Source of the DNA: an uncultured Spirochaetota bacterium
GTDB lineage: Bacteria; Spirochaetota; Spirochaetia; JAFGXN01
Assembly: GCA_944388995.1 (NCBI GenBank)
Contig: CALXKN010000008.1
Coordinates: forward strand, 17,160-81,159
Length of the DNA: 64,000 bases
Direction: 5' to 3'
The notes under the pieces were generated by a model. That model did no database searches. It was not told where the DNA came from and saw only the letters and a list, made by a program, of their open reading frames with translations. Positions 2,430 through 63,842 of the stretch are shown here, one piece after another. A program made the position numbers and the translations under genes. The number at the start of each line of letters is the position of its first letter. Position 1 is the stretch's first letter.

Positions 2430-2744
2430 TTATTGCAATAACAAGAAGTTCCGTTCAAGGCGCTCCGGTTACCGGCGTATATTCTCCGGTAAGGGAATAT
2501 TGTTTTACCCGGAAATGCCATGTTTATATGCCTCTCCGATAAACATGAAGAAACAAAAAAGAAAGAATTCTTTTTCCAATATCTTTAAACAAATAAGGAA
2601 TCATTTCTTCCTTTGTTTTCGGAAAAAAAGACCTTCGGAATACAGTTCTTTCTAATTTTGTTTGCGTCAAAATAAACAGACAGCAAAAGTTCGCCAAAGA
2701 AACCCACCAATAATCATACATTGCGGTTGCATTATATAATAAAA

Positions 2745-3389
2745 TTATTTCACCTGCAAGAGACTGATAATCGCCTGGTTGCGGTTTAAAACCGGATTGA
2801 CAAGAGCGTAGTCGTAAGCGGTGCGGCCGGAGTAGTCGGTGAGGGAAATGTCGGCGCCGCCGTTAATCAGAGCGATGATAATCTGCGGATTGTAACTTTC
2901 ATCGGCGGCAATCATCAGCGCGGTCTGACCGTCTTCGTCCTGTAAATCGGGATTGGCGCCCGCTTCCAACAGCGCGACAATGATATCCGGATTGCTATTT
3001 TCCTCAGCCGCACACATCAGCGCCGTTTCGCCGTCTTCTTCGACGGCATTCACGTCGGCTCCGAGACGGATCAGCGTTTTAATGATTTCGACATTACGGT
3101 TTTTTTCAGCCGCCATCATCAAAGCGGTCTTCTGATCTTCCTCGCGGGCGTTGACGTCGATTCCGAGTCCGACCAGCCATTCGATCACTTCGGGATGCTG
3201 ATTGCGTTCCGCGGCAATCATCAGTGCGGTTTCCATGTCATCAAAACGGAAAGTGAAGTCGGCTCCCGCGTCGCGGGCGGCCTGCAACTCCTTCACCGTT
3301 GCAACCCGCAGCAAATCTTCAAGATAATTTGCAAAAAGCAGAGACGGTAAAAATAAAAGAACTGCCAATAAGCCGACTTTTTTCATCAA
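2745..3389 (-). CDS. Secreted ankyrin-repeat protein
   Basis: N-terminal signal peptide (MMKKVGLLAVLLFLPSLLFA). About five ankyrin repeats of the form (TALMxAA…N…IIxxLxxxGADVNA). Confidence 0.8.
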   Translation of the reverse strand: MMKKVGLLAVLLFLPSLLFANYLEDLLRVATVKELQAARDAGADFTFRFDDMETALMIAAERNQHPEVIEWLVGLGIDVNAREEDQKTALMMAAEKNRNVEIIKTLIRLGADVNAVEEDGETALMCAAEENSNPDIIVALLEAGANPDLQDEDGQTALMIAADESYNPQIIIALINGGADISLTDYSGRTAYDYALVNPVLNRNQAIISLLQVK

Positions 3390-3781: not shown

Positions 3782-5196
3782 AGCGATAAAAGCATTTTCA
3801 GAACTTCGTAGGTACGGTCGGCAGAAGCGACGTCAAGAAATTCGCTGACCGAATGGACGTTTTCTGTCTGCGGTCCGAAGGAAATCATGTCAAGCCGCGG
3901 TTTCAGCGAAGCAAAGATTCCGCACTCCAATCCGGCGTGGATGACGGCAATCTGCGGCGGGCGGCCGGTTACTTTACGGAAGGCGGTCTGCGCCAGCTCT
4001 GACAGCGGCGATCGGGAAGCCGGTTCCCACATCGGATATTCGTCGGTTTTTTCGGCCTGAAAGCCGCAGGCGGCAAAAACGGCCGCGGTTTTTTCTTTGA
4101 CGGCGTTCAGTCCGCCGGCCGTCAGCGATCGGACGGAAACGGTCACCTGAACTTCTCCCCCTTCTTTGCAGCGGACAACCGCGACGTTGGCCGAAGTCTC
4201 CACCGTATCCGCAAAACGGCGGCTCATGGTTCCGACGCCGTTCGGCAGCGACGTTAAAAGCCGCAGAAGCGTTCCGCTTTCGTCAGCCGGAAAACATTCG
4301 GTTTCGGAAACCGGTGAAAGTCTGAATTCCGCTTCTTTCGGTAAAAATCCGGAAAGCCGCATCTGAAGTTCGGCCGCCGTCAGAGCGGTATTGACAACCG
4401 CCGACGAGCGCGACGGAATGACGTTGTGTTTGTCTCCGCCTTCAAAAGAAGCGATCCGAACGGGAGAGGTCCTGTTTACCTCCGCCAACGCTGCGGCGAG
4501 TGCGACAACCGCGTTCGGCCGGTTTTTACCGATGTCGCTTCCCGAATGACCGCCGGGAAGTCCGCTCAGTTCAATCCGGAAAAAACCCGCGGATTCTCCT
4601 TTTTCCCGTCTGATTTTCCGTCGGCCGCAAAACGTCGCGCCGCCGGCGCAGCCGACAATGATGACGCCGTCTTCTTCGGAATCCAGATTGATCAGCCGGT
4701 CGAAAGCAAGCGTTTCGGCGGACAGGGCGGCCGCACCGCAGAGACCTTCCTCTTCGCAGACGGTGAACAGCAGCCGCAGCGGCGGGTGAACGGCCTGCGG
4801 ATCATCGCATAACGCCAGCGCCATTGCCAGCGCTATGCCGTTATCGGCTCCCAACGACGTTCCGTCGGCCGAAAGCCGCTTTCCGTCGTCAATAACCGGA
4901 ATCGGATCGCGTTCAAAATCGACCGGCGAGGTTTCCGTTTTGACGCAGACCATGTCCATATGCCCCTGAATGAGGACGCCCGCATGCGTTTCAAAGCCGG
5001 CCGCCGCGGGAACGTCAATGCTCAGATTGCCGGCGCCGTCAACCGAATGCGCAAATTTTTTTTCTTCGGCAAACCGAATCAAATAACCGCGGATTTTTTC
5101 CTCCTTTCCGGACGGCCGCGGGATTTTCGCGATTTCCAAAAAGTAATCTTTCCAAGTCATCGTTCCGATTATACCGTTTTTTAAAAACGCGGACAA
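3775..5196 (-). CDS. pepD: Aminoacyl-histidine (Xaa-His) dipeptidase, M20 family
   Basis: 473 aa with M20 motifs (HMDMV, GADNGIALAMALAL). Length and motifs are typical of PepD. Confidence 0.8.
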   Translation of the reverse strand: MSAFLKNGIIGTMTWKDYFLEIAKIPRPSGKEEKIRGYLIRFAEEKKFAHSVDGAGNLSIDVPAAAGFETHAGVLIQGHMDMVCVKTETSPVDFERDPIPVIDDGKRLSADGTSLGADNGIALAMALALCDDPQAVHPPLRLLFTVCEEEGLCGAAALSAETLAFDRLINLDSEEDGVIIVGCAGGATFCGRRKIRREKGESAGFFRIELSGLPGGHSGSDIGKNRPNAVVALAAALAEVNRTSPVRIASFEGGDKHNVIPSRSSAVVNTALTAAELQMRLSGFLPKEAEFRLSPVSETECFPADESGTLLRLLTSLPNGVGTMSRRFADTVETSANVAVVRCKEGGEVQVTVSVRSLTAGGLNAVKEKTAAVFAACGFQAEKTDEYPMWEPASRSPLSELAQTAFRKVTGRPPQIAVIHAGLECGIFASLKPRLDMISFGPQTENVHSVSEFLDVASADRTYEVLKMLLSLC

Positions 5197-7795: not shown

Positions 7796-8073
7796 ACGCC
7801 GACTGTTTCCGTTAACGCCGCAGTTTCCGCTTGAAATTCAGCAATCAGTTTTTCTTTTTGCTTTTTTGTCAGCTTTTTCAGGCGCGCCTCTTCCTTTAAT
7901 GCTTCCGGCCAGCCGGCTGTTTCGCGTAAAAAAACGACAGACAGCGGCTGACGGCCGCGGGTGTATTTGGCGCCTTTTCCGCTGCGGTGCTCTTCAAGCC
8001 GCGCCTTCCAGTCAGCCGCGGCTCCGGTGTAAAACGTTCCGTCACCGCAGGCCAGAATGTAAACGAATGCCAT
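7792..8073 (-). CDS. GIY-YIG nuclease-domain protein (UPF0213 family)
   Basis: MAFVYILACGDGTFYTGAAADWKARLEEHRSGKGAKYTRGR is the GIY-YIG signature. Confidence 0.8.
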   Translation of the reverse strand: MAFVYILACGDGTFYTGAAADWKARLEEHRSGKGAKYTRGRQPLSVVFLRETAGWPEALKEEARLKKLTKKQKEKLIAEFQAETAALTETVGV

Positions 8074-23893: not shown

Positions 23894-23980
23894 GGAGAGA
23901 TGTCCGAGTGGTTTAAGGTGCACGCTTGGAAAGCGTGTGTACGGTAACACGTACCGGGGGTTCGAATCCCCCTCTTTCCG
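23894..23980 (+). tRNA. tRNA-Ser (anticodon GGA)
   Basis: Cloverleaf with acceptor GGAGAGA/TCTTTCC, anticodon stem cacgc/gcgtg with loop ttGGAaa, long variable arm (gtacggtaacacgtac), and T-arm ggggGTTCGAATCcccc. Confidence 0.9.
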
Positions 23981-23983
23981 TTT

Positions 23984-24090
23984 CCCTTGGGTAAGACGGC
24001 AGACAAATCGGAGCGGCTCAACCCTGCCAGGTTCGGAAGAAAGCAACAGTCGGCTGTTTCCGGTTGTGCCTGTTTTGTTTTATTCAAGGG
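23984..24090 (+). ncRNA. ffs: Signal recognition particle RNA (small/4.5S-type)
   Basis: Domain-IV motif ccAGGuuCGGAAgaAAGCAaCag (GGAA tetraloop flanked by AGG and AAGCA). Terminal helix CCCTTG…CAAGGG. Position immediately 5' of dnaX, as in Bacillus. Confidence 0.6.
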
Positions 24091-53403: not shown

Positions 53404-55218
53404 CTATTCTTTTTTTTCGAAAACGTATCTGATGTCAAAACTGTCGAGAGCATCAAATGTCACATTTTCCCATTTATTGCGAACGGCCAAAAACGCATAC
53501 GGCCGCACCAGATAAACCAGCGGCACCTCTTCCCAAATGATTGACTGGTAACGGTCCCACAACGCTTTCGCCTTTTCGGCATCCGCGGTGTAGGAGGCTT
53601 CCGTATACAGACGGTCGATTTCGGCTTCCCATTCGGTTGCCGGCGTTTTCTGATTTGGATACCACATATGGAGGTTGCCGCCGCTCGGCCACACGTTGAC
53701 GCCCTGGCTCGGAAACAGGTTGCTGCCGGAAAGCGCAATCGACAACGACTGCCAATCGAACGAGTAGAGGAGGGAGTCTACCATTTTCGCAAAATCGACC
53801 GTGCGGATTTCCATCGCAATTCCCTGTTTTTTCAAATCATCGGCATAAATGTTGGCAATGTCCGACAGCTGCGGATTGTCAGCGGAAATCCAAAAGTCAA
53901 ACGCGACGGCGTTGCCCTCTTTATCGCGTAAAACGCCGGCAGAGTCCTTCTCCATTCCGATAGACGTCAACAGCGCGGCCGCTTTTTCCGGATTGTAAAA
54001 ATAGTTGAAAACAAGACTCTCCTCAAACACCGGCGAGGCTTCATGAAAAAAGTGGGTGACCGGTTTCGCTAAACCACGGTAAACATTGCGGATGATTTTT
54101 TCCCGATCCAGAAGGCAGCTCATTGCCTGCCGGAACTCTTTCTGTGAAAACCAATTATAATACTTGCGAGGCAGCGCACTGCGGTTAGGGTTTTGATTCC
54201 ACGTGATAAAAGCCGCTGTCGGAGCCGGACCGCCGTTAATCACCTCGTAACCGCCTTTTTCCTGTTCGGACAGCACGGAATCCAAATCGGCAGGCATCAC
54301 CGACAGCGTTTCCAGTTCGCCGTTTTTGAAAAGCAGCAGCTGCGTTGAAGGATTGGAAACGAACGAAAAACGCACCGTATCAAGGTAGGGCAGCCGCTGA
54401 CCGACGCTGTCTTCCAAAAAATAGTGCGGGTTGCGCCGCAGCTCCAAAACCAGTCCGGGCGTGTAACGGCTGATGTAAAACGGTCCGGCAGTCGGAACGG
54501 TGCTCGGATCGGTATTAATGGTAATAAAATCAATGACACGTTGAGAGCCGCCTTCCTTCTTTGCCGCCTCATAAAGAAACCGCGGCCCGATTTGCAGATT
54601 CGCCGCCAACAAAGGATCGGCGACAATTCGCGGAAAAGTCAGCCGAAACGACGAATCGGTCAGCTTCTCCGCGGTAATTTCGCCGCGGCTCCCGTCCGGC
54701 ATCGGCACAAACATCCCCGAATATTCAGCCATATTCAAAGCCGGATCTTTGATGATTTCCTCAATCCAAAAAACAGCGTCGTCGGCATTGAATGCGATTG
54801 TTTCGCCTGTCTTCGGCACAAACCAACACAAACCCGACTTAAATGTGAAATCAACCTCGGTGACCTGACGCTGCTCATCAACACGGACTTCAAAATCGGC
54901 AATGTGCCCCGACCATTTTTTTTCATAAACATCATATTCCAACAAATACGGACAAAGGTAACTCATCACAGCGCTCGTTGGTAAATCATTGATACGCGTC
55001 AAATTGAATGTCGACGGGTCCGACTCCATCGCCTCGTTCCAAACCCCACCGTAACGTCCGATTTTCCGCTCTCCGCCGCCCGGCCGAACCGTCATCTGCG
55101 ACAGAAAGCCGTTTTGGGCTTCCGCCCGCAAAGCCGCCGCCTCCTGCGTCGACACTTCCTTTTTCGGACCGCATGAAACTGCAGCCGCCGCCAAAACCGC
55201 CAAAAAAAAGCCCTTCAT
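53404..55218 (-). CDS. ABC transporter substrate-binding lipoprotein, family 5 (peptide/nickel, OppA-like)
   Basis: Lipobox AAVSCG. 604 aa with SBP_bac_5-like length and pattern. Confidence 0.75.
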   Translation of the reverse strand: MKGFFLAVLAAAAVSCGPKKEVSTQEAAALRAEAQNGFLSQMTVRPGGGERKIGRYGGVWNEAMESDPSTFNLTRINDLPTSAVMSYLCPYLLEYDVYEKKWSGHIADFEVRVDEQRQVTEVDFTFKSGLCWFVPKTGETIAFNADDAVFWIEEIIKDPALNMAEYSGMFVPMPDGSRGEITAEKLTDSSFRLTFPRIVADPLLAANLQIGPRFLYEAAKKEGGSQRVIDFITINTDPSTVPTAGPFYISRYTPGLVLELRRNPHYFLEDSVGQRLPYLDTVRFSFVSNPSTQLLLFKNGELETLSVMPADLDSVLSEQEKGGYEVINGGPAPTAAFITWNQNPNRSALPRKYYNWFSQKEFRQAMSCLLDREKIIRNVYRGLAKPVTHFFHEASPVFEESLVFNYFYNPEKAAALLTSIGMEKDSAGVLRDKEGNAVAFDFWISADNPQLSDIANIYADDLKKQGIAMEIRTVDFAKMVDSLLYSFDWQSLSIALSGSNLFPSQGVNVWPSGGNLHMWYPNQKTPATEWEAEIDRLYTEASYTADAEKAKALWDRYQSIIWEEVPLVYLVRPYAFLAVRNKWENVTFDALDSFDIRYVFEKKE

Positions 55219-55254
55219 GCCGCCATAGTAAAAGAAAGCCGCCGTCCTGTCAAC

Positions 55255-55421
55255 CTTTTCGTTTTTTGGGCGCGCGCCCCTGCGGGGCGCCGGGCTTTCC
55301 GCTGCAATTCGCAGCCTCCCTGCGCCTTCACCGCGGCAAAGCTGCCGCTTTGCCCTGCGCCTTCTCTCCGTCGGCAGCTCATTTCCGCTTCAATCCCTCG
55401 CGCCTTCGGCAAGGTGCTGCG
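55255..55421. repeat. GC-rich 166-bp direct repeat, copy 1
   Basis: Near-identical (1 indel) to 56426-56591. About 70% GC with internal hairpins (ggcaaagc-tgcc-gctttgcc; gggcgcgcgcccc…ggggcgcc). Confidence 0.9.
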
Positions 55422-55515
55422 GAAATCGGCATTTTATTGTTTTAGTGTAAAAATGGGAACTTCCGAAAACAGTCAACCGTTTTTCGGAAAAATAACTGCC
55501 CTAAACGTATTTTTG

Positions 55516-55524
55516 TGTTATAAT
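55516..55524 (+). promoter_or_regulatory. Extended -10 (TGtTATAAT) upstream of the MNT/HEPN pair
   Basis: tgtTATAAT at 55516-55524, about 90 nt before the MNT start. Confidence 0.4.
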
Positions 55525-55616
55525 AACTCCAATAAAAATTTCGTATGGCAAACACAGCAAAAGCAAAACCCGAAAAAAACGCCGATTAAAACCGGAGCGG
55601 AAGATTCGGGAGAAAC

Positions 55617-55922
55617 TTGGAGCGATCGGGTATGAGCTGTAATCTTCCTGAAAGCGTGGTTTTCGATATTGAACGATTCGCAAAGAAAAACAAGATTAAA
55701 AAGGTCGTTCTGTTTGGCTCCCGCGCGAGGGGCAATCATTCGGAACGAAGCGACATTGATTTGGCGGTCAGCGGTGGAAACGCGGCGGATTTTTATTACG
55801 ACGTCAATGAAGAAGCGCGGACTCTTTTAATTTTTGATGTGGTCAATCTGGACGGACCGGTCAGCGGCGAACTGCGCGCCGAAATAGAAAAGGACGGAGT
55901 TTTACTCTATGAAGAAATTTGA
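55617..55922 (+). CDS. Minimal nucleotidyltransferase (MNT) antitoxin-type protein
   Basis: GSRARG…SDIDL motif (Pol-beta NTase fold). Confidence 0.8.
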   Translation: MERSGMSCNLPESVVFDIERFAKKNKIKKVVLFGSRARGNHSERSDIDLAVSGGNAADFYYDVNEEARTLLIFDVVNLDGPVSGELRAEIEKDGVLLYEEI

Positions 55923-56304
55923 CAATTTTTGCAAAGCGCTTTCGAATTTGCGGGAAGGATTGCAGCTTGAAGAACCGTATTCTGTCGTCGAACGGACGGG
56001 CATCATCGGGCTGTTTGAAATTTGCTTTGAGCAGGCATGGAAGCTGATGAAAGCGGTTTTGGAAGAGCACGGCAGGACAATCGACCGCGTCGGTTCCCCG
56101 AAAGTTGTCATTCAGCTTGCATATCAGAGCGGGATGATTGACGACAGCGAAAAATGGCTTTCCCTGCTCAGAGATCGAAATATCCTTGCTCACACCTACA
56201 GCGACGAAGATTCGCTTGCCGTGATTCGAACGTTAAAGACGGACTACGAGCCCTTGTTCGCCACCCTCAAAGAAGAGATTGAAACGCGCCGGCTTTCGGC
56301 GTAA
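55909..56304 (+). CDS. HEPN-domain toxin-type protein (HI0074/nucleotidyltransferase-substrate-binding family)
   Basis: Rx4-6H motif (RDRNILAHTY). Overlaps the MNT gene by 14 nt. Confidence 0.75.
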   Translation: MKKFDNFCKALSNLREGLQLEEPYSVVERTGIIGLFEICFEQAWKLMKAVLEEHGRTIDRVGSPKVVIQLAYQSGMIDDSEKWLSLLRDRNILAHTYSDEDSLAVIRTLKTDYEPLFATLKEEIETRRLSA

Positions 56305-56425
56305 AGCGGAGGCGCGAAACAACTGAGTCCGGTATGAAAGTAGAAGAAATGGGAGCGAAAACTCTTTCAATCGCCACTGATTCTGCCAGCATCTTTACAT
56401 TTGGCTCCGCCCCCCCTCGCTGAAT

Positions 56426-56591
56426 CTTTTCGTTTTTTGGGCGCGCGCCCCTGCGGGGCGCCGGGCTTTCCGCTGCAATTCGCAGCCTCCCGCGCCTTCA
56501 CCGCGGCAAAGCTGCCGCTTTGCCCTGCGCCTTCTCTCCGTCGGCAGCTCATTTCCGCTTCAATCCCTCGCGCCTTCGGCAAGGTGCTGCG
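56426..56591. repeat. GC-rich 166-bp direct repeat, copy 2
   Basis: See copy 1. Preceded by a C7 tract (56410-56416). Confidence 0.9.
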
Positions 56592-56655
56592 AAAGAGGCG
56601 TCTGAAAACTATAAATATGAGAACAATCTCATTTAAACCTCATCCATTTTTATCT

Positions 56656-59541
56656 TCAGCAGAAATGCGCCATATCGCGCGGATAATACTTGCAGTCGTG
56701 CAGTTCCGTGTCGTCAAGCCCCAGCGCCTTTACCAGGGCAGCAGACGCTATGCACCAGTACCCGCGGTACTGGTTCTTTTTCAAGTCAAATTTTGTTATA
56801 AGCCCATCAGTCTTCGTGTGAATCCACTGTCTTTTAAGATACCGTTTTAACCGCTCAACAGCCGCCGCTTTATTCTCTTTTGAAAGCAGTACCACCTCAT
56901 ATACCGCATTGGAATATTTCGGACAGCAGAGCTTTTCCGTGCGTATCTGCCAGGATGAGTCCAGCGTCTGCATAAGGAAATCCAGATAAAAATCCCGCTG
57001 TTCCGATTTTTGTAACAATTTTCGATAGTCATCCAGAAATTCAGTCCTGTTAAAAAGCATAATCAAGTACAGAACAGTTTCCATATCTTCATAATTATCA
57101 TTGCCGTCCTGTGCGTCTATCAAATGACGCAAAATCAGGTCTACTTCGGGAAGCAGCTCATGCATATCTAGCCCTAAGGAATATCCTGTATAAAATTTGT
57201 AAAATGCATAAGTATATATTTGATATTTAAACGCTCTTATGTCCGATTCTGCCTGATGTTCATCAGTCTCAATATTATGATGATGATACGTTTGCAGTAT
57301 TTCTTTCAGCTTTTGGGAATCTTTCTTGAATCTTTCGTCAAAATATTCCTGGGGTTTGACTTTATCCCTCATCATTCTTACCCGGGGCGGAAGTTTTTCC
57401 CGCTCCTCCTCCGTAAGAAATTGCGACAGTTCAACTAAAAAGGGCTCTATAAACTCCGACATGAGTTTCGCTTTATTCCCGGCTGAGTGATCATAAGGTA
57501 TTTCAATTGCCGATGTCCGCCGTTTCTCATCCTTCCACAAGCGTCCTATTTTAATAAATGAACCGCCTTTCTCAAATATGTACAACGATATAATCAGTGT
57601 GCAGTCTTCATACTCACATTCTATATAATCTTGCTCCCCCAAGCAGTAATCTCTGTAGGTAAGATTCCTCAAAGTGGTTATTATCCAGGGTATCCACTCT
57701 TTTTTGATGACAACACTATCCCATGACTGCCATGACCCGGTACCGAAACGGCTGCCGGTTCTGGTGTTGATTCGTAGTTCGCCTTTGGGACTCCAGGGCG
57801 TGGGAAGTTTTTTCCGTTCTTCTTCAGGAAGAAATTGTGACAAGGCCACTAAGAAGGGTTCTATAAATTCCGACATGATTTTCAAGTCGTTGTCCGATTC
57901 TTCAAAATTAAATTCGAAACGGGTATAACGCCACTTTGATGTCAGGGTATAACTCTGCTCATTTTTTGCATGCCAAGGAAAATAAGGTATTTCAAGTGCC
58001 GGCGATATCTTCTTTTCATCCTTCCACATGGGAAATATTTTTATATAGGAATACCCATCCCCTATAGGACAGATACTTAATGTTAATTGGCACGTTCCCC
58101 ATTTATTTATGATGCTTTCAACTCCTGTTTGATAATTATCAACACTAAGATTTCTCAATGTGCTTATTATCCAGGGTATCCGGTTTTTTTGTATAACAAT
58201 ACTTTTCTGCTGCCCGCCGCCGAATGTACCGGTTCTTTTTCCGTTAATCCGTAATTCATCGTTATCTAATTCCTCGAAGCTGTATTCAAAATCGGCATTC
58301 AGAGTTTTTTTGCTTTGATATTTTGTTATCTTCTCTATTTTGGCTACTATCGATTCGTCGTCCGACTTATCGGTTTCGCCTGCATACCAATCTTTGCCTT
58401 CGAGCCATACCCCGAACCAGAAAGGAAGATCCCCCCAAGGTCTTTGACAGAGTTCTTTCTTTTCGTTGACACTCCAGGGGGGCGACAGTTTACCCCTTTC
58501 TTCTTCCGTGAGAAACTGCGACAATGCAACCAGAAACGGCTCTATAAATTCCGACATTAATTTTGTTTCTTTCCGGGATACATAGGGTATTTCAATATTC
58601 CATGAACTCTTATTTTCATTTTTCCAGACAGGATAAATTTTGATATAGGAATAATCAAAGGGTACTACATTTATAATAAAACTTAAATTACAGTAACCGT
58701 ATTCATATACGAGAGTTTGCGGGGTGTTATAATCGTCGATAGTGGCATTTCTTAGTGTGGTAATGATCAAAGGTATCCACGCTTTTTTTATGATAATACT
58801 TTCCCATTGTCCCCTGCCGAATGAATCTGTTCGCTTTGCATTGATTTCCAACTCGTCATCATTTAATTCTTCATTGTCAGCTTTTTCCTCAAAATAAAAT
58901 TCGAAATGAACATTCCCGCCCTTACTGATCAGGTATTCTTTTTCTGCCAGTCCGTATTGTGTTATACCGGTCATTGCTTTGAAAAAATTGAGGGAACCGC
59001 TTTCCTTATCGGCAAAAATGATGTTCTGTTTTTTGTTTTCCCTCCAGGGAGGCGGAAGTTGTGTTCTTTCTTCTTCGGTAAGGAATTGTGCCAATTCAAC
59101 CAAAACAGGTTCGATAAATTCCGCCATTAACCTGCTTTTATCCCAGGGTAGATATGGTATTTCAATAAACGGTGTCGTTTTTTCCTTCGGTTCCTTCCAT
59201 ATGGGCATTATTTGAAGGGTCGCATAATCTTTGGCAGATGGTAAAAACTCCAGATTGACTTGACATTCTTCATATTCGTGAACGATATGTCTGTTCCAAA
59301 TCCCTTCCGGAAAGTTGATGTCGTAATCCTCAAAAGGAAGGGTTCTCAGTGTGGTGATAATCCGGGAAATCCACGCTTTTTTTATGACGATACAGTAATA
59401 CAAAGGCATACGTTCCGCTTCATCCAACAATGGAAAGGTTATTTTTTCGAAAATCCGTATTTCGTCGTTGTCCGATTCCTCAAAATGAAATTCAAAGGTA
59501 TCGGATATTTCGGCATCTCCCCTTCTGCCTGTAATGAACAT
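56656..59541 (-). CDS. Novel 961-aa protein: four tandem ~180-aa repeats plus C-terminal ~210-aa domain (paralogue of the next gene)
   Basis: Repeat hallmarks FEFxFEESDNDELRI…KRTxxFGxGxWxSxxIKKxWIPxIITTLRN…YIKIxPxWKxE…IEIPY…SEFIEPFLVxLSQFLTEEERxKLPPPW occur four times. The C-terminus is about 65% identical to the 59781-60401 product. Confidence 0.7.
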   Translation of the reverse strand: MFITGRRGDAEISDTFEFHFEESDNDEIRIFEKITFPLLDEAERMPLYYCIVIKKAWISRIITTLRTLPFEDYDINFPEGIWNRHIVHEYEECQVNLEFLPSAKDYATLQIMPIWKEPKEKTTPFIEIPYLPWDKSRLMAEFIEPVLVELAQFLTEEERTQLPPPWRENKKQNIIFADKESGSLNFFKAMTGITQYGLAEKEYLISKGGNVHFEFYFEEKADNEELNDDELEINAKRTDSFGRGQWESIIIKKAWIPLIITTLRNATIDDYNTPQTLVYEYGYCNLSFIINVVPFDYSYIKIYPVWKNENKSSWNIEIPYVSRKETKLMSEFIEPFLVALSQFLTEEERGKLSPPWSVNEKKELCQRPWGDLPFWFGVWLEGKDWYAGETDKSDDESIVAKIEKITKYQSKKTLNADFEYSFEELDNDELRINGKRTGTFGGGQQKSIVIQKNRIPWIISTLRNLSVDNYQTGVESIINKWGTCQLTLSICPIGDGYSYIKIFPMWKDEKKISPALEIPYFPWHAKNEQSYTLTSKWRYTRFEFNFEESDNDLKIMSEFIEPFLVALSQFLPEEERKKLPTPWSPKGELRINTRTGSRFGTGSWQSWDSVVIKKEWIPWIITTLRNLTYRDYCLGEQDYIECEYEDCTLIISLYIFEKGGSFIKIGRLWKDEKRRTSAIEIPYDHSAGNKAKLMSEFIEPFLVELSQFLTEEEREKLPPRVRMMRDKVKPQEYFDERFKKDSQKLKEILQTYHHHNIETDEHQAESDIRAFKYQIYTYAFYKFYTGYSLGLDMHELLPEVDLILRHLIDAQDGNDNYEDMETVLYLIMLFNRTEFLDDYRKLLQKSEQRDFYLDFLMQTLDSSWQIRTEKLCCPKYSNAVYEVVLLSKENKAAAVERLKRYLKRQWIHTKTDGLITKFDLKKNQYRGYWCIASAALVKALGLDDTELHDCKYYPRDMAHFC

Positions 59542-59780
59542 TGCATCTACCAGTTTAAGAAAAGCTTTTGTATCAGCGGATTGGGCAGATTCTTCATGTT
59601 GATCGTCTTCTTTATTATATTTTATTCCGACTCCTAAGGAACGCAGCCGTCATATCGAAGGGGTGCAACGGTATGACGGCCAACACTCCGCTTTCACGCG
59701 GTGGTCTTATGCTGTTCATGTCGATACCGGACCGCTTCCGACACAACCGAATGAAGTTTTCCGATTTTCCGAATCAATTT

Positions 59781-60401
59781 CTAACAGAAATGGGTCATAT
59801 CGTAGGGATAGTATTTACAGTCTTTCAGTTCCGTATCGTCAAGTTTGAGGGCTTTTACCAAAGCGGCGGCGGCGATGCACCAATACCCCCGGTACCACCC
59901 TATTTTCAGATCCCGGTTGGTTATAACACCTTCGGTTAATGACATAAACCACTGCCTTTTAAGATACCTCTTTAACCGCTGGACGGCTTCCGCCTTGTTT
60001 TCTTTTGACAGCATTACCACCTCGTATACCGAATTGGTCTCTTTGGGGCAACGAAGTTTTTCCGTACTTATCTGCCATGTGGAGTCTACTATCTGTACAA
60101 GATAATCCAGGTAAAAATCCCGCATTTTCGATTTTTGTAATAACTCCTTATATTCATCCAGAAATTCTGTCCGGTTAAAAAGAATGATTAAGTATATAAT
60201 CATTTCCATATCATCATAACCTCTGTCCCTTTCTCTCGTTGTATCAATCAAATTTCTTATGATAAGGTCTACTTCGGGAAGCAGCTCATTCATACCAAGC
60301 CCCAGGGAATAGCCTGCATAAAATTTACAAGCTGCTTCCATATATATGTGATATTTAAACGACCATACATTATATTTTTCCGGATGGCTTATTCTCTTCA
60401 T
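59781..60401 (-). CDS. Stand-alone 206-aa paralogue of the C-terminal domain of the 961-aa protein
   Basis: YxGYSLGLxMxELLPEVDLIxRxLID…CKYYPxDMxHFC is shared with the 961-aa protein. Confidence 0.7.
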   Translation of the reverse strand: MKRISHPEKYNVWSFKYHIYMEAACKFYAGYSLGLGMNELLPEVDLIIRNLIDTTRERDRGYDDMEMIIYLIILFNRTEFLDEYKELLQKSKMRDFYLDYLVQIVDSTWQISTEKLRCPKETNSVYEVVMLSKENKAEAVQRLKRYLKRQWFMSLTEGVITNRDLKIGWYRGYWCIAAAALVKALKLDDTELKDCKYYPYDMTHFC

Positions 60402-60643
60402 ATTTACTCATCCGTTCAGCAAGATCAGACGCATCCTTATTATATCTTTCCCTAAAATATTCTTCTGTTTTTATGGTGTCTCTCATCTGTTATTCCTTGT
60501 GTATTTTGTAAATTTTTGGTTTATTCTCGTTATACATAACATTGCCATTTTCATCAAGTTGGTAATATGTTACTTTTCCTCCCTTCGGAACGCCTGCGGC
60601 GTGGCTACAATCCTTTGTGCGAGAAGATTTTTATCAATGGTGT

Positions 60644-60700
60644 CCGTACACACCCATTGATGTTGTCAAAGAACTCCTTCTGTACGGAGATAGGGGGAGG
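60644..60700. repeat. 57-bp exact repeat with 7-bp inverted repeat (CCGTACA…TGTACGG), copy 1
   Basis: Identical to 63943-64000. Starts 2 nt after the stop of the 75-aa gene. Confidence 0.9.
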
Positions 60701-60701
60701 G

Positions 60702-60929
60702 TTATTCAAAAGTTATTACCATATGCGAACCTGCCGTTTTTTCGGTTACTTTCTGTATAATCTCTTTTTTGTCATCTTCAGTTAATGGCTCGTTTTCTGG
60801 AACAAGCCAATTTTTCATTGAACTTTTATAACAGACAAAACCGCCTACTATCATTTCGCCTGCGATTCTCGCAGTTCTGCCATCGAGTTCTACATCTATG
60901 TATGTGTTTGTTCCGGTTATTTTTGTCAT
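60702..60929 (-). CDS. 75-aa hypothetical protein (partner of DUF600-like gene in duplicated module)
   Basis: MTKITGTNTYIDVELDGRTARIAGEMIVGGFVCYK…. A truncated second copy lies at 62300-62353. Confidence 0.5.
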   Translation of the reverse strand: MTKITGTNTYIDVELDGRTARIAGEMIVGGFVCYKSSMKNWLVPENEPLTEDDKKEIIQKVTEKTAGSHMVITFE

Positions 60930-60938
60930 ATATTAATC

Positions 60939-61271
60939 CTATGCATTATCCCATTCGTCTTGAAGAGCCTGATCCCATTCAAAGGTCATATCAAAGTGAC
61001 CGTTCTTTTCAAGGGTGTAAATAGCTTTGTTCCATTGTGCAAAATGTAACTCTTTTGCACTATTATGAAATTTTATTAAATCAATTTTTGTTTCTCGATT
61101 AAGTGCTAAGTTTAAAGCATTTTTCCATTCTCCATTAATCTGATATTTTGCATTCGTACCAATATATTTATCACTACATTCAATATTCAGTTCAATTTTA
61201 TCCCAAGAGGAATCAATACTATCATTCAATTGCGAACCAATATTTTTATATATATCTTCAATATTTTTCAT
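60939..61271 (-). CDS. DUF600 (YezG/EsaG)-like putative immunity protein, copy D
   Basis: N-terminus IEDIYKNI…SSWDKIEL and C-terminus WNKAIYTLEKNGHFDMTFEWD fit the DUF600 pattern (…EWEKVYLY…, W.NL.L..ER.G.F.IDYDY). AGGAG RBS overlaps the upstream nuclease-fragment stop. Confidence 0.5.
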   Translation of the reverse strand: MKNIEDIYKNIGSQLNDSIDSSWDKIELNIECSDKYIGTNAKYQINGEWKNALNLALNRETKIDLIKFHNSAKELHFAQWNKAIYTLEKNGHFDMTFEWDQALQDEWDNA

Positions 61272-61282
61272 AAATACTCCTA

Positions 61283-61657
61283 TTAATTTAAGAAGAACAA
61301 ATTTTCTGTTTTTTCTATTTTTCCATCCGATGTTTTTATAATGTATGTTACATCAAAATCTGTCGGTCTTAGATTATCAGCATAGTTTATTTTTATATCA
61401 ACTTCAACCTTTTTTCCCTCTGAAAGTGCATCGTTCCATTTTTTTTCCATGGTTTTCCATTCACCATTATTTAGTGTGGCGGTTTGTGGAACATAATTTA
61501 TTTGTTCTCCAGGACCATTGAAAATTCTTGCAATAATATGTCCGCCCTGGTCATCACCTTTAATACCATCTTTTATATCAACTGATTTTCCTTGTTGATA
61601 AACATTTCTGTCTTTTGTTTCAAGTTTTAATTCTCCGCTTACTTTGTTTTACAACTA
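61283..61657 (-). pseudogene. Orphan/pseudogenised nuclease toxin C-terminal domain (Serratia NucA-like bba-Me / Endonuclease_NS_2, EsaD/YeeF-type)
   Basis: Minus-strand frame encodes …GDDQGGHIIARIFNGPGEQINYVPQTATLNNGEWKTMEKKW… (compare Serratia DRGHQ…NITPQKSDLNQGAW). It has no start codon and in-frame TAG (61655-61657) and TAA (61649-61651). An upstream fragment (…DADYEDIVAALNRFGTIASKRK) in the same frame extends to 61731. Confidence 0.6.
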
Positions 61658-61731
61658 TTTTCTTTTACTTGCAATTGTTCCAAAACGATTAAGTGCAGCA
61701 ACAATATCTTCATAATCAGCATCTATTTCAT

Positions 61732-62262
61732 CTAACTGTCCCAGATTTCCTTAAATTTTAAACCTTTGATACTGTTTTTCTTAACAATATCTATAAACTC
61801 ATCTGTTACAAAATAATCTCGAATAATTAATTGATTTTGTAGTTTAACTTGAAAAAGAGGTGGATAATTGTTTTCCTTAAAATAATATTGCTCAACACCT
61901 AAAATATCATTCTCAAAATACTTATATTTAGTTTTTTTTCGATCTAAGCAGTCCAAAACAGTTAAATTATTTAATAGTACAAAATCGTCATTAAGCGGAA
62001 CAAATCTTATATTTATTTGAGAAATGTCAGAAAGTACTGCCATAAATTTTTTATTTATGAAGAATCCTCTACAATCATAACATTCACAAATATCCCCTGC
62101 AGGATTATTAGAATCTCTATCGTATTCTAATTGAAAATCAGAAGGAATGCTTATTTCTATACCTTTATTAAACTGACGTAAAATTTTTCTATCAGTTTCT
62201 TCGTTTTTTATATAGCATCCTTTGTAATTATCAATATCTGTTTCTAAAATGTATATTTTCAT
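61732..62262 (-). CDS. 176-aa hypothetical protein (AT-rich, possible immunity-type protein)
   Basis: ORF with a G8 tract serving as its RBS. No known motif. Confidence 0.45.
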   Translation of the reverse strand: MKIYILETDIDNYKGCYIKNEETDRKILRQFNKGIEISIPSDFQLEYDRDSNNPAGDICECYDCRGFFINKKFMAVLSDISQINIRFVPLNDDFVLLNNLTVLDCLDRKKTKYKYFENDILGVEQYYFKENNYPPLFQVKLQNQLIIRDYFVTDEFIDIVKKNSIKGLKFKEIWDS

Positions 62263-62299
62263 ATATCCCCCCCCTAATTGTGAATTTTTAAGAAACCAC

Positions 62300-62353
62300 T
62301 CAATAATTCCTTTCGGATTGTTTGTATGTGTTTGTTCCGGTTATTTTTGTCAT
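62300..62353 (-). pseudogene. Truncated remnant of 75-aa-family gene (MTKITGTNTY then divergent, stop after 17 codons)
   Basis: The first 10 codons and 5' flank are near-identical to the 60702-60929 gene, then homology breaks. Confidence 0.6.
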
Positions 62354-62362
62354 ATATTAATC

Positions 62363-62686
62363 CTATGCATTATCCCATTCGTCTTGGAGAGTTTGATCCC
62401 ATTCAAATGTCATATCAAAATGACCATTCCTTTCAAGAGAGTAAACAGCTTTGTTCCATTTATGCTCAGGCGACATAGATTCTTGAAGTTCAAAAACGCT
62501 ATCCATTAAAGTATTTACAGTTAATAAAGGAAACTTTAATTCTTTTTTTTCAAACGATGATAAAGTATATTCTGCCTGAAATGAACACATTTTATTTAGA
62601 CTTGATTCTATTTTTACAGTCACTTTTTCCCATTTACCGGAAATATTATCTTGAACCGCCTTGCCTAATTCTTTATATAAATCCAT
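62363..62686 (-). CDS. DUF600 (YezG/EsaG)-like putative immunity protein, copy B
   Basis: C-terminus WNKAVYSLERNGHFDMTFEWDQTLQDEWDNA is near-identical to copy D. Confidence 0.5.
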   Translation of the reverse strand: MDLYKELGKAVQDNISGKWEKVTVKIESSLNKMCSFQAEYTLSSFEKKELKFPLLTVNTLMDSVFELQESMSPEHKWNKAVYSLERNGHFDMTFEWDQTLQDEWDNA

Positions 62687-62732
62687 AGCATCTCCATTAA
62701 TTGTTGAATATTTTTTTGAATAGTTGGCTCAT

Positions 62733-63842
62733 TTATTTCTCTTTATTTAAAATAAACAGATACTCAGAGACGTGTATATTACGGTTATTCAAATTTCTGC
62801 TTCCCCGGAATGTATTATAAGTCATTTCAACGGTTTTCAGTTTTCCGTAGTGTTCCAGCATTGTTTTCATTTGCTCAAAAGTAATAAATCCTTCAGAATT
62901 ATAAGAGATAATGACAAACTTTGAATCAATTTTATCTATGATTTTTTCCATGGATTTTAAGGCTGAATAAGGTTTGTTGAATTCCGAGCGGTTCCAATCC
63001 TGAGTTATCCCTGAAACTTTACTGATTTCAGCATCCAGCCTGTTCTTTATGATAAGATTCAGCATAAAATAATTTGAACCATAGGGATGCTGGTTATACG
63101 GGGGATCCAGATAAGTAATATCTATTTTTTTTAATTCCCCGGCAAGTTCCACAGCATCTTTTTTATAGATTTTAACCTTTGAATTGAAATTGCTTAAAAC
63201 CGGCTCTTTCAGTTCTATTTTTCCAAAAATGCGGGTTAAAGCGTTTTTCCCGGCAGCGCCGAAACATCCGATTCCGGTATTTTTGTCCTTGTAAAACCCT
63301 TTGAAAACCCCGCTTGTATTGACATGAACCGAAGCCTCCGTTACGAGCGGCGCTAAAAAAAATTTTTTCATGTCTTCTTCCTGCACCACTTTATCAATCA
63401 GACTGCGGTAAGTGTCGATTAACAGAGCGTTCTCATGGGTATAAAAAACCCTTTCTCCTCTTTGAATATTTCCGTCATCCTGAGGGGCATAATTTTTTGT
63501 GATAATTCTCGGTTCTTTTTTGCTGCGGCACATTTCTTCTATTATTGATTTATATTCCCGCCATTTTTCATGCGGAAAATCTTTTTTGTCAGTCAGATAG
63601 CATTCATTGATGAGGCGGGAATATTCTTCCAGATCATTGGCAATTAAAACACTGCTGTATTTTTTCAGCATCCGGGCAACAATTCCCGAACCGGAGAAAA
63701 TATCCGCACAAACAAGTTTTTCTTTTCCCAATAAACCGGCAATTTTTTTGACTTCTTCTTCTATATTCCTGATAAGCTGCCGTTTGTTCCTGATATAAGT
63801 AATGATCTGTGCAGTAAGATATTCTTTATTTTCTTCTTTCAT
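62733..63842 (-). CDS. DNA N6-adenine methyltransferase, D12 class (Dam-like, alpha type)
   Basis: Motif I DIFSGSG and motif IV DPPY in alpha-class order. 369 aa. Confidence 0.7.
   Translation of the reverse strand: MKEENKEYLTAQIITYIRNKRQLIRNIEEEVKKIAGLLGKEKLVCADIFSGSGIVARMLKKYSSVLIANDLEEYSRLINECYLTDKKDFPHEKWREYKSIIEEMCRSKKEPRIITKNYAPQDDGNIQRGERVFYTHENALLIDTYRSLIDKVVQEEDMKKFFLAPLVTEASVHVNTSGVFKGFYKDKNTGIGCFGAAGKNALTRIFGKIELKEPVLSNFNSKVKIYKKDAVELAGELKKIDITYLDPPYNQHPYGSNYFMLNLIIKNRLDAEISKVSGITQDWNRSEFNKPYSALKSMEKIIDKIDSKFVIISYNSEGFITFEQMKTMLEHYGKLKTVEMTYNTFRGSRNLNNRNIHVSEYLFILNKEK

Follow-up and report, generated by a model that had tools for sequence, protein, structure and literature searches.

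Direct repeats around an MNT/HEPN gene pair

The window, that is the whole 64,000-nucleotide stretch of DNA that was analysed, contains a sequence, named E here, that occurs twice in direct orientation between an OppA-like solute-binding protein (SBP) gene and a gene for a 961-aa PoNi-type immunity-repeat protein (Table 1). BLAST aligned 173 nt of copy 1 (55252-55424) with 172 nt of copy 2 (56423-56594) at 98.3% identity (E 1e-82), the differences being one T indel (CCCTGCGCC versus CCC-GCGCC) and one base at each edge. The preliminary description had reported 166-bp repeats with a single indel and about 70% GC. The repeats are real, and these values apply to the perfectly matching core (55255-55421 and 56426-56591), the GC content of which is 70%, as compared with 65.3% and 64.5% for the full copies 1 and 2, 47% for the cassette that they bracket and 44.3% for the window. 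Strain comparison indicates that a tail of lower identity (GAAATCGGC / AAAGAGGC) is also part of E and extends the two copies to the limits given in Table 1. On the plus strand, copy 1 reads as a T-run, hairpin 1, two central hairpins, a 3' hairpin and a short variable tail (55422-55430). No more than these two copies of E are present in the window, and the repeat search of the window returned no inverted repeat pairs of at least 20 nt. The distances previously given to the oppA-like and 961-aa genes hold, and correspond to 33 nt (from the SBP gene start) and 61 nt (from the stop of the 961-aa gene) when measured from the 173-nt and 172-nt copies.

Table 1. Features of the SBP locus, in window coordinates
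Feature	Coordinates	Strand	Basis and remarks
SBP_bac_5 (OppA/peptide-nickel type) solute-binding protein gene, 604 aa	53404..55218	-	Core gene, on the T-run side of copy 1
Predicted sigma-70-type SBP promoter, TTGACA-N17-TACTAT	55225..55253	-	Motif; -35 box adjoins copy 1 at its T-run end
Repeat copy 1 (element E, subfamily A)	55252..55430	+	Alignment and strain comparison
Cassette leader, with predicted extended -10 promoter TGtTATAAT at 55516-55524	55431..55631	+	Sequence; leader repeated in L100
MNT (minimal nucleotidyltransferase) antitoxin-like gene, 96 aa	55632..55922	+	GSX10DXD motif; alternative start TTG 55617
HEPN toxin-like gene (HI0074 family, NTase_sub_bind/HepT-like), 131 aa	55909..56304	+	RX4H motif = RNILAH
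Remnant, 5' part of a paralogue of a 239-aa secreted-protein gene (L082 1242-1961)	56363..56410	-	Between the HEPN stop and copy 2
Repeat copy 2 (element E, subfamily A)	56423..56599	+	Alignment and strain comparison; without the extra T at the indel; tail 56592-56599
961-aa PoNi-type immunity-repeat protein gene	56656..59541	-	First gene of a variable immunity/defence island beyond copy 2

Between the repeats, the promoter and the MNT-HEPN pair that had been noted from the sequence were both recovered. The MNT motif GSX10DXD is present as GSRARGNHSERSDID, the two genes overlap by 14 nt, and their Pfam matches are Polbeta/NTP_transf_2 and NTase_sub_bind/HepT-like. The HEPN protein passes TIGR01987 with 92 bits (cut-off 55.8). 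By gene pair, overlap, size and the motifs GSX10DXD and RX4H, the cassette resembles the MNT-HEPN modules of the HI0073/HI0074 type (type VII HepT/MntA), and we assign it as a predicted HI0074-type MNT/HEPN toxin-antitoxin (TA) pair with its own promoter. Unlike the MntA equivalogs, its MNT protein scores 44.8, below their cut-off of 60, and the toxin and antitoxin functions are predictions from sequence. The TA proteins themselves show nothing unusual. The short gene remnant located between the HEPN stop and copy 2 is missing in strain L099.

On the other side of copy 1, the -10 box of the SBP promoter ends 6 nt ahead of the ATG, so that the SBP mRNA is probably leaderless; this box and the ATG are kept in the sister species. 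At L082, this promoter and ATGAAGGGC were copied together with E. The genes within about 8 kb of the locus are the SBP, Big_2/LRR, HAD, CorA, ParAB and immunity genes, and neither an integrase nor a transposase gene was called within this distance.

A dispersed and hairpin-forming intergenic repeat

The repeat had been proposed to be a local regulatory or structured element hosting the TA module, and a generic repetitive element with many dispersed copies had been named as the outcome that would speak against recombination between the two copies. The family was counted by searching with an invariant 21-mer, leading to 10 copies in a single GTDB genome, the MAG BRZ_M__bin37. This MAG contains at least 10 copies on at least 8 contigs, and five of the copies abut contig ends. 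The view of a local element does not hold, since E is a dispersed family whose copies lie beside unrelated genes. The repeat is indeed generic, but this does not refute recombination because dispersed repeats supply the homology for it.

The copies are about 165-180 bp long, all are intergenic, and each carries a T-run at one end. Once aligned, they share a core of about 150 nt and fall into three tail subfamilies. The neighbouring genes unrelated to TA modules are htpG, rseP, fumC and the genes for thymidine phosphorylase, Fe-hydrogenase, a sulfatase, a Big_2 giant protein and Rpn-family proteins; housekeeping, Rpn-nuclease and surface-protein genes are thus all represented. Copies of E lie immediately ahead of the promoters or behind the terminators of core genes and in many cases border on accessory DNA; the Big_2 gene is bracketed by two direct copies. 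In two cases E lies directly upstream of an Rpn-family gene (TIGR01784, 122 bits), and these two loci, E and Rpn gene together, are 98.8% identical across at least 913 nt. A third Rpn paralogue is preceded by only the last ~35 nt of E, and most E copies have no Rpn gene. All three plus frames are open across the repeat of the SBP locus. No ORF is conserved, however, since the copies differ by a 1-nt indel and, in hairpin 1 of other copies, by one of 7 nt; this agrees with the earlier observation and excludes a coding role of E. Gene callers place no ORFs in E, and its translated frames were for this reason set aside as pseudo-protein queries.

The host range of E was examined in several collections. 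The invariant 21-mer gave no copy in other GTDB species, and its one match in JGI metagenomes was a chance match within a gene on a 67% GC contig and not E. A 29-mer of E found nothing in IMG/VR viral contigs, where 60 matches to two occurrences of the internal motif CCTGCGCCTTC were all judged by nhmmer to be unrelated GC-rich DNA; BLAST searches of plasmids and phages with E found nothing. A profile HMM built from the 10 copies detected no extra or diverged copy in the window and in all related loci, including those of the sister species. At the fumC locus, E is absent in L096 (89.5% DNA identity at fumC) and in a sister species; the upstream regions are rearranged in both comparisons, which makes a precise E-less site or a target duplication unreadable there, and no empty site differing by E alone was recovered. 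E is a lineage-restricted interspersed GC-rich hairpin-forming intergenic repeat of an uncultured Treponema-like spirochaete, and represents a previously undescribed family whose sequence is shared with no described one. Copies of E break short-read assemblies of the host (L002, L009-L012 and L088-L090 end exactly at E), which is relevant to binning and pangenome work.

The stable hairpins mentioned in the preliminary description were recovered by folding: the minus strand has a predicted fold of -88.7 kcal/mol (z = -2.9), the plus strand reaching z = -1.7. A closing helix and five hairpins are conserved among the copies, with 99.5% of cells paired. Compensatory double changes occur at three pairs of hairpin 1, all other helices being invariant, and several copies end in a terminator-like hairpin followed by the T-run. 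The compensatory changes, together with the constant placement on the promoter or terminator side of genes, hint at some selected structure or function. Rfam gave no family, either for the whole window at the gathering score or for three E copies at the E-value threshold (Flavo-1 only, 21 bits versus 42), and the tRNA/tmRNA search found none. The orientation of E relative to its neighbours is mixed, the T-run end facing a gene start in 7 copies and a gene end in 4.

Filled, empty and hybrid alleles

The filled allele, E-TA-E, is the common and widespread form of the locus, with at least 15 ENA assemblies and 4 Logan runs. An empty site with one repeat and no TA had been predicted, and such an allele, consisting of the 961-aa gene, one E and the SBP gene, is present in two independent assemblies, L087 and L079. 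L087 (3.9x coverage) spans both complete flanking genes and aligns to window positions 60652-56423 (99.9%) and 55424-52455 (99.7%), the two alignments overlapping by exactly one 173-nt repeat. L079, which is also empty, represents another haplotype with private SNPs in both E and the SBP promoter, and its sequence begins only 229 nt before E. Both are short-read metagenome assemblies (samples ERZ24773320 (BRZ_FB) and BRZ_M), in which the assembler could skip the E-TA-E loop.

The two copies of filled alleles are patchworks of variants. Depending on the strain, the T indel lies in copy 1, in copy 2 or in neither, and the tail variants GAAATCGGC and GAAGAGGC as well as the L082-paralogue variant GCACCCTC are found in either copy. 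Copy 2 of both L099 and L103 has the B-type tail and, next to it, the 3' flank known from the MAG loci L075 and L081, beyond which lies a DUF285 gene. L100 has a second TA leader (97% identical) after copy 2, and this leader drives a different gene. L095, an E-less strain allele, keeps the SBP promoter but matches the window no further than the E boundary, and in the sister species purL lies 70 nt from the SBP gene, with no E, TA or island at this place. The region upstream of the SBP gene holds, as options, the TA, a second cassette, the PoNi immunity island, a DUF285 gene or a type I R-M gene, or is empty. Searches with the exact HEPN and MNT proteins and with a 96%-identical HEPN variant found no TA cassette at another E site, all contexts being the SBP locus.

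As for the direction of the event at this locus, insertion of the TA is no likelier than its loss by deletion, because the E-TA-E allele is common and widespread. We had considered the empty allele to be ancestral, since the L082 paralogue shares the flank on the side of the 961-aa gene; this does not hold, since other strains identify the shared 9-12 nt as part of E, namely an allelic tail.

Probable recombination between copies of E

We consider it likely that E, as a lineage-restricted interspersed repeat, is a portable stretch of homology on which homologous recombination acts in a defence/immunity hot spot, where exchange between copies would add, remove and swap small gene cassettes as part of ordinary bacterial genome plasticity. 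The general homologous recombination machinery could use the copies since they are 98-100% identical over ~170 bp. A crossover between copy 1 and copy 2 would loop out one E and the TA (1171 bp) and leave the single-E empty allele, while the reverse, by Campbell-type re-integration of the circle or by replacement after DNA uptake, would restore the cassette. Gene conversion between the two copies may homogenise and reshuffle their variants, and ectopic exchange with distant copies may attach new DNA to copy 2. As a result, the region upstream of the SBP gene would be a hypervariable, cassette-like hot spot for defence and immunity genes. The agent would be RecA-type homologous recombination, each event having taken a presumed direction, and E would have no dedicated function beyond being tolerated and structured. 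The earlier suggestion that the TA was inserted or can be excised by recombination between the repeats is supported by the empty alleles and by variant exchange; its other part, a local regulatory element receiving the TA, is contradicted by the dispersed copies. Further caveats apply to this homology-based explanation: E has far fewer copies than the classical REP/ERIC families, it has no clear terminal inverted repeats or target duplication that would account for its spread, and the 98.8% identity of the two E-Rpn loci over at least 913 nt might indicate a dedicated mobilising enzyme.

Other explanations were weighed against this one. The empty alleles might be assembly artefacts, all E-bearing strains being E-TA-E and the repeats a static duplication without ongoing cassette gain or loss. 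Both alleles do come from short-read metagenomes, at 3.9x for L087 and from 229 nt before E for L079, the many assemblies that break at E indicate that assemblers struggle here, and the filled allele is commoner by far. We nevertheless judge this unlikely, considering that the samples are independent, that L079 is a distinct haplotype, that L087 covers both whole flanking genes and that the MAG has no TA-flanked E copy; moreover, hybrid copies and swapped variants show E-E exchange apart from the empty alleles. It is very unlikely that E is a functional structured RNA or a cis-regulatory element, such as a 5' UTR or an sRNA, its duplication around the TA then being incidental. The stable minus-strand fold, the conserved helices with their compensatory changes and the terminator-like ends point in this direction, but the same hairpins could form equally well in DNA, the covariation is limited to one hairpin of closely related copies, no promoter is conserved along with E, no Rfam family reaches the gathering score and the orientation to neighbours is mixed. 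A 5' UTR of the SBP gene, as had been suggested, is probably not the case, because the TTGACA-N17-TACTAT promoter sits between the repeat and the ATG and the orientation is inconstant.

E could also be the recognition site of a dedicated RecA-independent cassette-exchange system, either integron-like or relying on cleavage and joining by Rpn-family PD-(D/E)XK nucleases, so that cassettes for defence and surface variation, such as the TA, Rpn genes and phase-variable genes, would be captured, excised and swapped at E sites chromosome-wide. The cassette-like arrays (E-TA-E, E-leader-TA-E-leader-gene in L100, two direct copies around the Big_2 gene), the duplication of E along with two Rpn genes and the preserved pairing of hairpin 1 are compatible with such a system, and Rpn proteins promote RecA-independent recombination in E. 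coli (PMC5350276). Against it, the copies are dispersed singly and not in an array, the patchworks imply several exchange points inside E as homologous recombination predicts, the TA cassette is found at the SBP locus only, most copies lack an Rpn gene, with only the ~35-nt end of E at the third paralogue, and Rpn genes are now seen as toxic defence genes (PMC10400941). E is not an attC site: its boundaries, AAC/TCTTTTCG... and ...GCTGCG(G/A)AA, have no GTTRRRY or RYYYAAC, hence no R''/R' core sites, it folds into several local hairpins and not into a single long bipartite stem or end-to-end imperfect palindrome, no integrase lies within ~8 kb, and the other copies lie apart from one another, next to housekeeping genes on at least 8 contigs. 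We find it very doubtful that E acts, as DNA or as a single-strand hairpin, in an integrase-free cassette exchange, possibly served by the multi-copy Rpn-family nucleases adjacent to some E copies. Equally improbable is a non-autonomous transposable element, MITE-like or derived from a hairpin-ended IS200/IS605-type element, of which the pair would form a composite unit moved, along with the TA, by a trans-acting transposase. E is a small, structured, dispersed and lineage-restricted family of high copy-to-copy identity with a T-run constant at one end, its absence from L096 (fumC), L095 (SBP locus) and the sister species suggests recent spread, and there are published examples, the IMU and NFM2-MITE pairs, of such repeats flanking cargo and mobilising it (PMC3184786). 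Yet E is not a classical MITE: it is small, non-coding and multi-copy (at least 10 copies of ~170 nt), but the repeat search and inspection of its ends found no terminal inverted repeats, the ends being unlike (T-run and GGGCGCG versus ...CCTTCGG and the variable tail; best inverted match 8/10, in subfamily C). No target-site duplication is consistent either: TTTTTCG occurs at both ends of L078, is inconsistent in L076 and L080, and belongs to a sequence that is also found upstream of an Rpn gene without E. Finally, the copies are direct, the empty allele contains exactly one E and no footprint, a signature of homologous recombination and not of transposition, and the DNA examined has no transposase with matching ends.

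With homologous recombination between copies as the preferred explanation, E can be compared with known repeats. Like REP/BIME, ERIC and the Neisseria Correia/NIME elements (PMC3184786), it is short, extragenic, rich in GC stem-loops, above its surroundings in GC and dispersed in a single lineage, without matching any described family. REP-type repeats also lie in plasticity regions where gene content differs by strain, as illustrated by the ccdO157 TA, present or absent in the REP-containing variable folA-apaH spacer (PMC3184786). Unlike these families, E has ~10 copies and not hundreds, a much longer multi-hairpin unit (~170 nt) and a one-sided T-run, and lies mostly just upstream of promoters and not within operons or at 3' ends. 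The NFM2-MITE pair of a Tn402-like integron and the IMU pair are near-identical direct structured repeats that also bracket a gene module; excision by homologous recombination between copies was suggested for the former, and for IMU transposition by a trans-supplied transposase has been demonstrated (PMC3184786). Both have terminal inverted repeats and 5-bp target duplications, whereas E has no terminal inverted repeats and no consistent target duplication, and its TA cargo is found at one chromosomal site only. The SBP site, with strain-variable whole-gene cassettes between conserved genes, also resembles the minimal mobile elements of Neisseria, whose cassettes are exchanged by homologous recombination (PMC3082526, citing Saunders and Snyder 2002, Snyder et al. 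2007). There, homology comes from the conserved flanking genes after transformation, whereas at the SBP site it would come from a dispersed repeat inside, also permitting intramolecular deletion.

Treponema species carry integrons, and TA cassettes occur in chromosomal integrons. As in integrons, structured repeats of similar size separate small, mostly single-function cassettes at the E locus, including a TA with its own promoter; unlike integrons, E has no attC cores, overall palindrome or nearby integrase/attI, its copies are scattered singly and its exchange points are unfixed.

Repeat-mediated recombination at variable loci is already well known, and nothing is overturned here. The locus offers a clean natural case of the gain or loss of a TA cassette at a pair of dispersed repeats, with filled, empty, hybrid, two-cassette and repeat-free alleles all obtained from gut metagenomes of an uncultured Treponema-like spirochaete for which no genetics exist. 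Accessory, defence and phase-variable genes have members of the new repeat family at their borders. The finding is useful for annotation, and may give an entry to the origin and spread of GC-rich structured repeats in a 44% GC genome.

The repeats and the cassette between them

The preliminary description had placed two direct GC-rich repeats (E) around an MNT/HEPN toxin-antitoxin pair (TA). BLAST and nhmmer bear this out, the copies being 98.3% identical (E-value about 1e-82) and the only two in the 64-kb window. They had been said to differ by one indel; this T indel is present, but one base also differs at either edge, and the real extents, with short variable tails, are those of the table. 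Likewise, the GC content of about 70% applies to the core (70%), whereas the full copies reach 65%, compared with 44% for the window and 47% for the DNA between the copies. The stable hairpins are predicted as proposed, several GC-rich ones on either strand (minus strand, -88.7 kcal/mol and z = -2.9; plus strand, z = -1.7). As had been thought, indels (1 nt between these copies, 7 nt elsewhere in the family) exclude a conserved ORF, although all three plus frames are open throughout.

Coordinates of the repeats, the cassette and neighbouring features (window positions unless a related locus is named)
Feature	Position	Remarks
E copy 1, aligned part	55252-55424	173 nt; BLAST/nhmmer
E copy 2, aligned part	56423-56594	172 nt; BLAST/nhmmer
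Short variable tails of E	copy 1, 55422-55430; copy 2, 56592-56599	from between-strain comparison
Leader with extended -10 promoter TGtTATAAT	promoter 55516-55524	between the repeats
MNT gene	55632-55922	Pfam Polbeta/NTP_transf_2; GSX10DXD motif
HEPN gene	55909-56304	overlaps MNT; NTase_sub_bind/HepT-like; TIGR01987 HI0074 family above cut-off; RNILAH motif
Gene remnant	56363-56410	48 nt, antisense, between HEPN gene and copy 2; fragment of a paralogue of the 239-aa secreted-protein gene of L082
SBP_bac_5 solute-binding protein (SBP) gene	53404-55218	minus strand
961-aa PoNi immunity-repeat protein gene	56656-59541	minus strand
Sub-threshold Flavo-1 matches	55284-55415; 56455-56585; L078 4417-4522	window matches on minus strand
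Second cassette of L100	4171-5175	poly-G ~4898-4910; no Pfam or PADLOC match

The promoter and MNT-HEPN pair announced between the repeats were both recovered, with domain and motif matches for the two genes. The leader also holds a 14-codon ORF (MANTAKAKPEKNAD, 55546-55590) without an obvious ribosome-binding site, followed by a small hairpin. Past copy 2 lies an immunity/defence island (56656-63842) with two PoNi (the second being PoNi_C), one Imm74, two YezG-like and one Imm11-like genes, followed by a D12 adenine methyltransferase; toxin genes were not seen there, the one exception being an Endonuclease_NS_2 fragment of 55 aa that was called in strain L004. The 961-aa multi-repeat PoNi gene contains internal 81-nt repeats (57389-57469 and 57803-57883). 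In the whole window, the sole Rfam matches at gathering score are a tRNA (23894-23980) and, directly downstream, the small SRP RNA (23990-24087).

The proposal that E forms the 5' UTR of the SBP gene was not retained, since a predicted TTGACA-N17-TACTAT promoter sits between E and the ATG. Its -10 box ends 6 nt upstream of the ATG (minus strand, 55219-55253), so that, judged from sequence, the SBP gene is probably leaderless. The same -10-to-ATG spacing is seen in sister-species locus L092 (~7985-8003, TACAAT-GGCGGG-ATG); sister-species locus L094 (~7985-8003) retains TACAAT with a different spacer and distance. Comparable promoters can be read by eye between E and rseP, htpG and the thymidine phosphorylase gene, and E therefore lies upstream of these predicted promoters, probably outside the 5' UTR.

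Alleles of the SBP locus with and without the cassette

Using exact-protein look-up, we recovered the locus from many independent assemblies. The filled allele (E-TA-E) occurs in four Logan runs and no fewer than 15 ENA assemblies, which come from three projects; in the collection's index, 88 blocks list the identical MNT protein. An empty site with one repeat and no TA was found twice. In L087 (ERZ24773320), a complete 961-aa gene, a single E and a complete SBP gene align to window positions 60652-56423 (99.9%) and 55424-52455 (99.7%), the overlap being exactly the 173-nt repeat; this allele lacks exactly 1171 bp, corresponding to one E and the cassette. L079, on contig 9 of the metagenome-assembled genome (MAG) BRZ_M__bin37, has the same structure on another haplotype.

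Other alleles differ around copy 2. In the hybrids L099 and L103, its TA-side flank is retained, and it continues into the B-type tail (the three subfamilies A, B and C are told apart by their tails) and 3' flank of MAG loci L075/L081, then into a DUF285 gene. Copy 2 joins a truncated 961-aa gene in L106, and the gene remnant is absent from L099. The two-cassette allele L100 carries, after copy 2, a second TA leader and promoter (97% identical to window 55425-55611) driving an unrelated gene of ~309 aa with an internal poly-G tract; the whole leader is conserved, and here it is reused before a different gene. The run of 11-13 G inside this coding region would change the frame.

E is missing from L095, in which the SBP gene is 96.7% identical (DNA) and its promoter is kept. 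Homology to the window runs up to the E boundary at 55258; directly upstream of the SBP promoter, a type I restriction enzyme R-subunit C-terminal gene (1691-3118) takes the place of E, TA and the immunity island. In the sister species, whose SBP proteins are 79-81% identical, the SBP gene is preceded by purL at a distance of 70 nt, and E, TA and island are all absent from the locus.

Sequence variants are exchanged between the copies. The T indel is located in copy 1 in the window, L005 and L007, in copy 2 in L100, L102 and L103, and in neither in L003, L004 and L006. Tail variants occur in either copy, as does the GCACCCTC variant otherwise typical of L082, a paralogue at another locus.

E is a dispersed repeat family

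An invariant 21-mer of E was scanned against one genome per species (185,579 species). The search for further copies proposed at the outset gave 10 matches, all in the MAG "uncultured Spirochaetes bacterium BRZ_M__bin37"; five adjoin a contig end, as is usual for repeats that break short-read assemblies. No copy was found in IMG/VR, PLSDB plasmids or INPHARED phages, nor in JGI metagenomes apart from a single chance match. Moreover, E is absent from a lineage 89.5% identical in fumC gene DNA, from the E-less SBP-locus allele and from the sister species, which suggests that it spread recently. Protein homologues place the organism among Treponema-like spirochaetes: its SBP shares 42-44% identity with SBPs of named Treponema, the closest named HEPN homologue is from a Treponema sp., and the neighbouring putative transposase belongs to TIGR01784, a family whose definition goes back to T. 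denticola.

Common to the aligned copies is a core of ~150 nt, ordered as T-run, variable hairpin 1, two invariant hairpins and 3' hairpin, and RNAalifold adds a 6-bp helix closing the entire E. Hairpin 1 shows compensatory double changes in three pairs, all other helices being invariant, which is modest evidence that the hairpins may matter, whether as RNA or DNA. E matches no Rfam family and contains no tRNA or tmRNA. The Flavo-1 RNA motif is matched repeatedly, but at ~21 bits where its gathering score is 42 (E-values of 0.06-0.14 in small searches); these sub-threshold matches are probably a chance similarity of GC-rich hairpins.

Every copy has a gene near its T-run end. This gene is read away from E in seven copies (SBP, the gene remnant, its intact paralogue, fumC, rseP, thymidine phosphorylase, htpG) and ends just before E in four (sulfatase, Fe-hydrogenase, Big_2 giant protein, one unnamed ORF), with a canonical terminator in between in two of these four. 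The other end faces the TA cassette, one of two Rpn-family gene copies, a Big_2 giant gene, a hydrogenase-regulator gene or a contig break. This dispersal beside unrelated genes in mixed orientation does not agree with a regulatory element local to the SBP site, and it speaks against an RNA that regulates in cis. The pattern fits a DNA repeat that is tolerated and may be selfish.

Two Rpn-family PD-(D/E)XK gene copies are 98.8% identical including E, with which they were duplicated. The MAG holds at least three such paralogues (TIGR01784 'putative transposase'; L076 997-1776 and 5972-6802, L080 7451-8000), two preceded by a full E and the third by its last ~35 nt. MAG contig 10 carries a Big_2 surface-protein gene (>1400 aa) between two direct E copies that are separated by 4.7 kb, and a poly-G13 lies in the spacer of its predicted promoter TTGACT...TATCCT (L078 ~4640-4655). 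This looks like phase-variable expression, which is known for Treponema tpr genes. In L082 (966-1961), a paralogous E, accompanied by the SBP promoter and the three initial SBP codons (ATGAAGGGC), precedes a gene for a 239-aa secreted protein without Pfam match.

Probable recombination between repeats and its alternatives

General homologous recombination and gene conversion would act here on dispersed stretches of ~170 bp with 95-100% identity. These processes are expected to yield what was observed: an allele with a single E and no footprint, copies whose variants are mixed at several positions within E, and copy-2 hybrids whose tail and flank are those of E at other loci. A crossover between direct copies would lead to loss of E and TA, and a reciprocal crossover, or replacement after DNA uptake, to their gain. 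The idea that the TA module can be moved by recombination between the repeats is thus supported by the empty and hybrid alleles and the swapped variants. The repeat family, its scatter over the genome and the alleles were observed directly; we infer that recombination of RecA type is responsible and that E does nothing else. The empty alleles may have arisen by deletion, a direction favoured by the higher frequency of the filled allele and its presence in more divergent strains.

The main reservation is that the empty alleles could instead be artefacts of short-read assemblies skipping the E-TA-E loop. We consider this unlikely because there are two independent empty samples, one on a distinct haplotype, and the hybrid alleles show E-E exchange regardless. 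A structured RNA would agree with the covariation of hairpin 1, but is not supported by Rfam, context or orientation. It is improbable that E is the site of a dedicated integrase-free cassette-exchange system, possibly acting via the adjacent Rpn-family nucleases: E and Rpn genes adjoin at two of at least 12 copies and cassette-like arrays occur, but a third Rpn paralogue lacks a full E and Rpn genes are regarded today as toxic defence genes (PMC10400941). Rpn genes raise RecA-independent recombination in E. coli (PMC5350276). An integron attC site was rejected, core sites, end-to-end palindrome and a nearby integrase all being absent and the copies scattered. A classical MITE or composite transposon is improbable, given the lack of terminal inverted repeats and of a consistent target duplication and the homologous-recombination signature of the empty allele.

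Homologous recombination on E recalls the REP, ERIC and MITE-like repeats described as engines of local plasticity: a spacer that contains REP either has or lacks the ccdO157 TA, and an integron lies between direct MITE-like repeats, with its excision by homologous recombination having been suggested (PMC3184786). E matches these in function, as a plasticity substrate, and the SBP site behaves like a Neisseria minimal mobile element as defined in PMC3082526. Confined to one lineage, E is unusual in being a long multi-hairpin unit, in its GC content (70%, the genome having 44%), in the T-run on one side only and in its placement beside promoters. The E family matches nothing described, whereas repeat-driven plasticity itself is already known, and the SBP locus overall is a defence/immunity hot spot.
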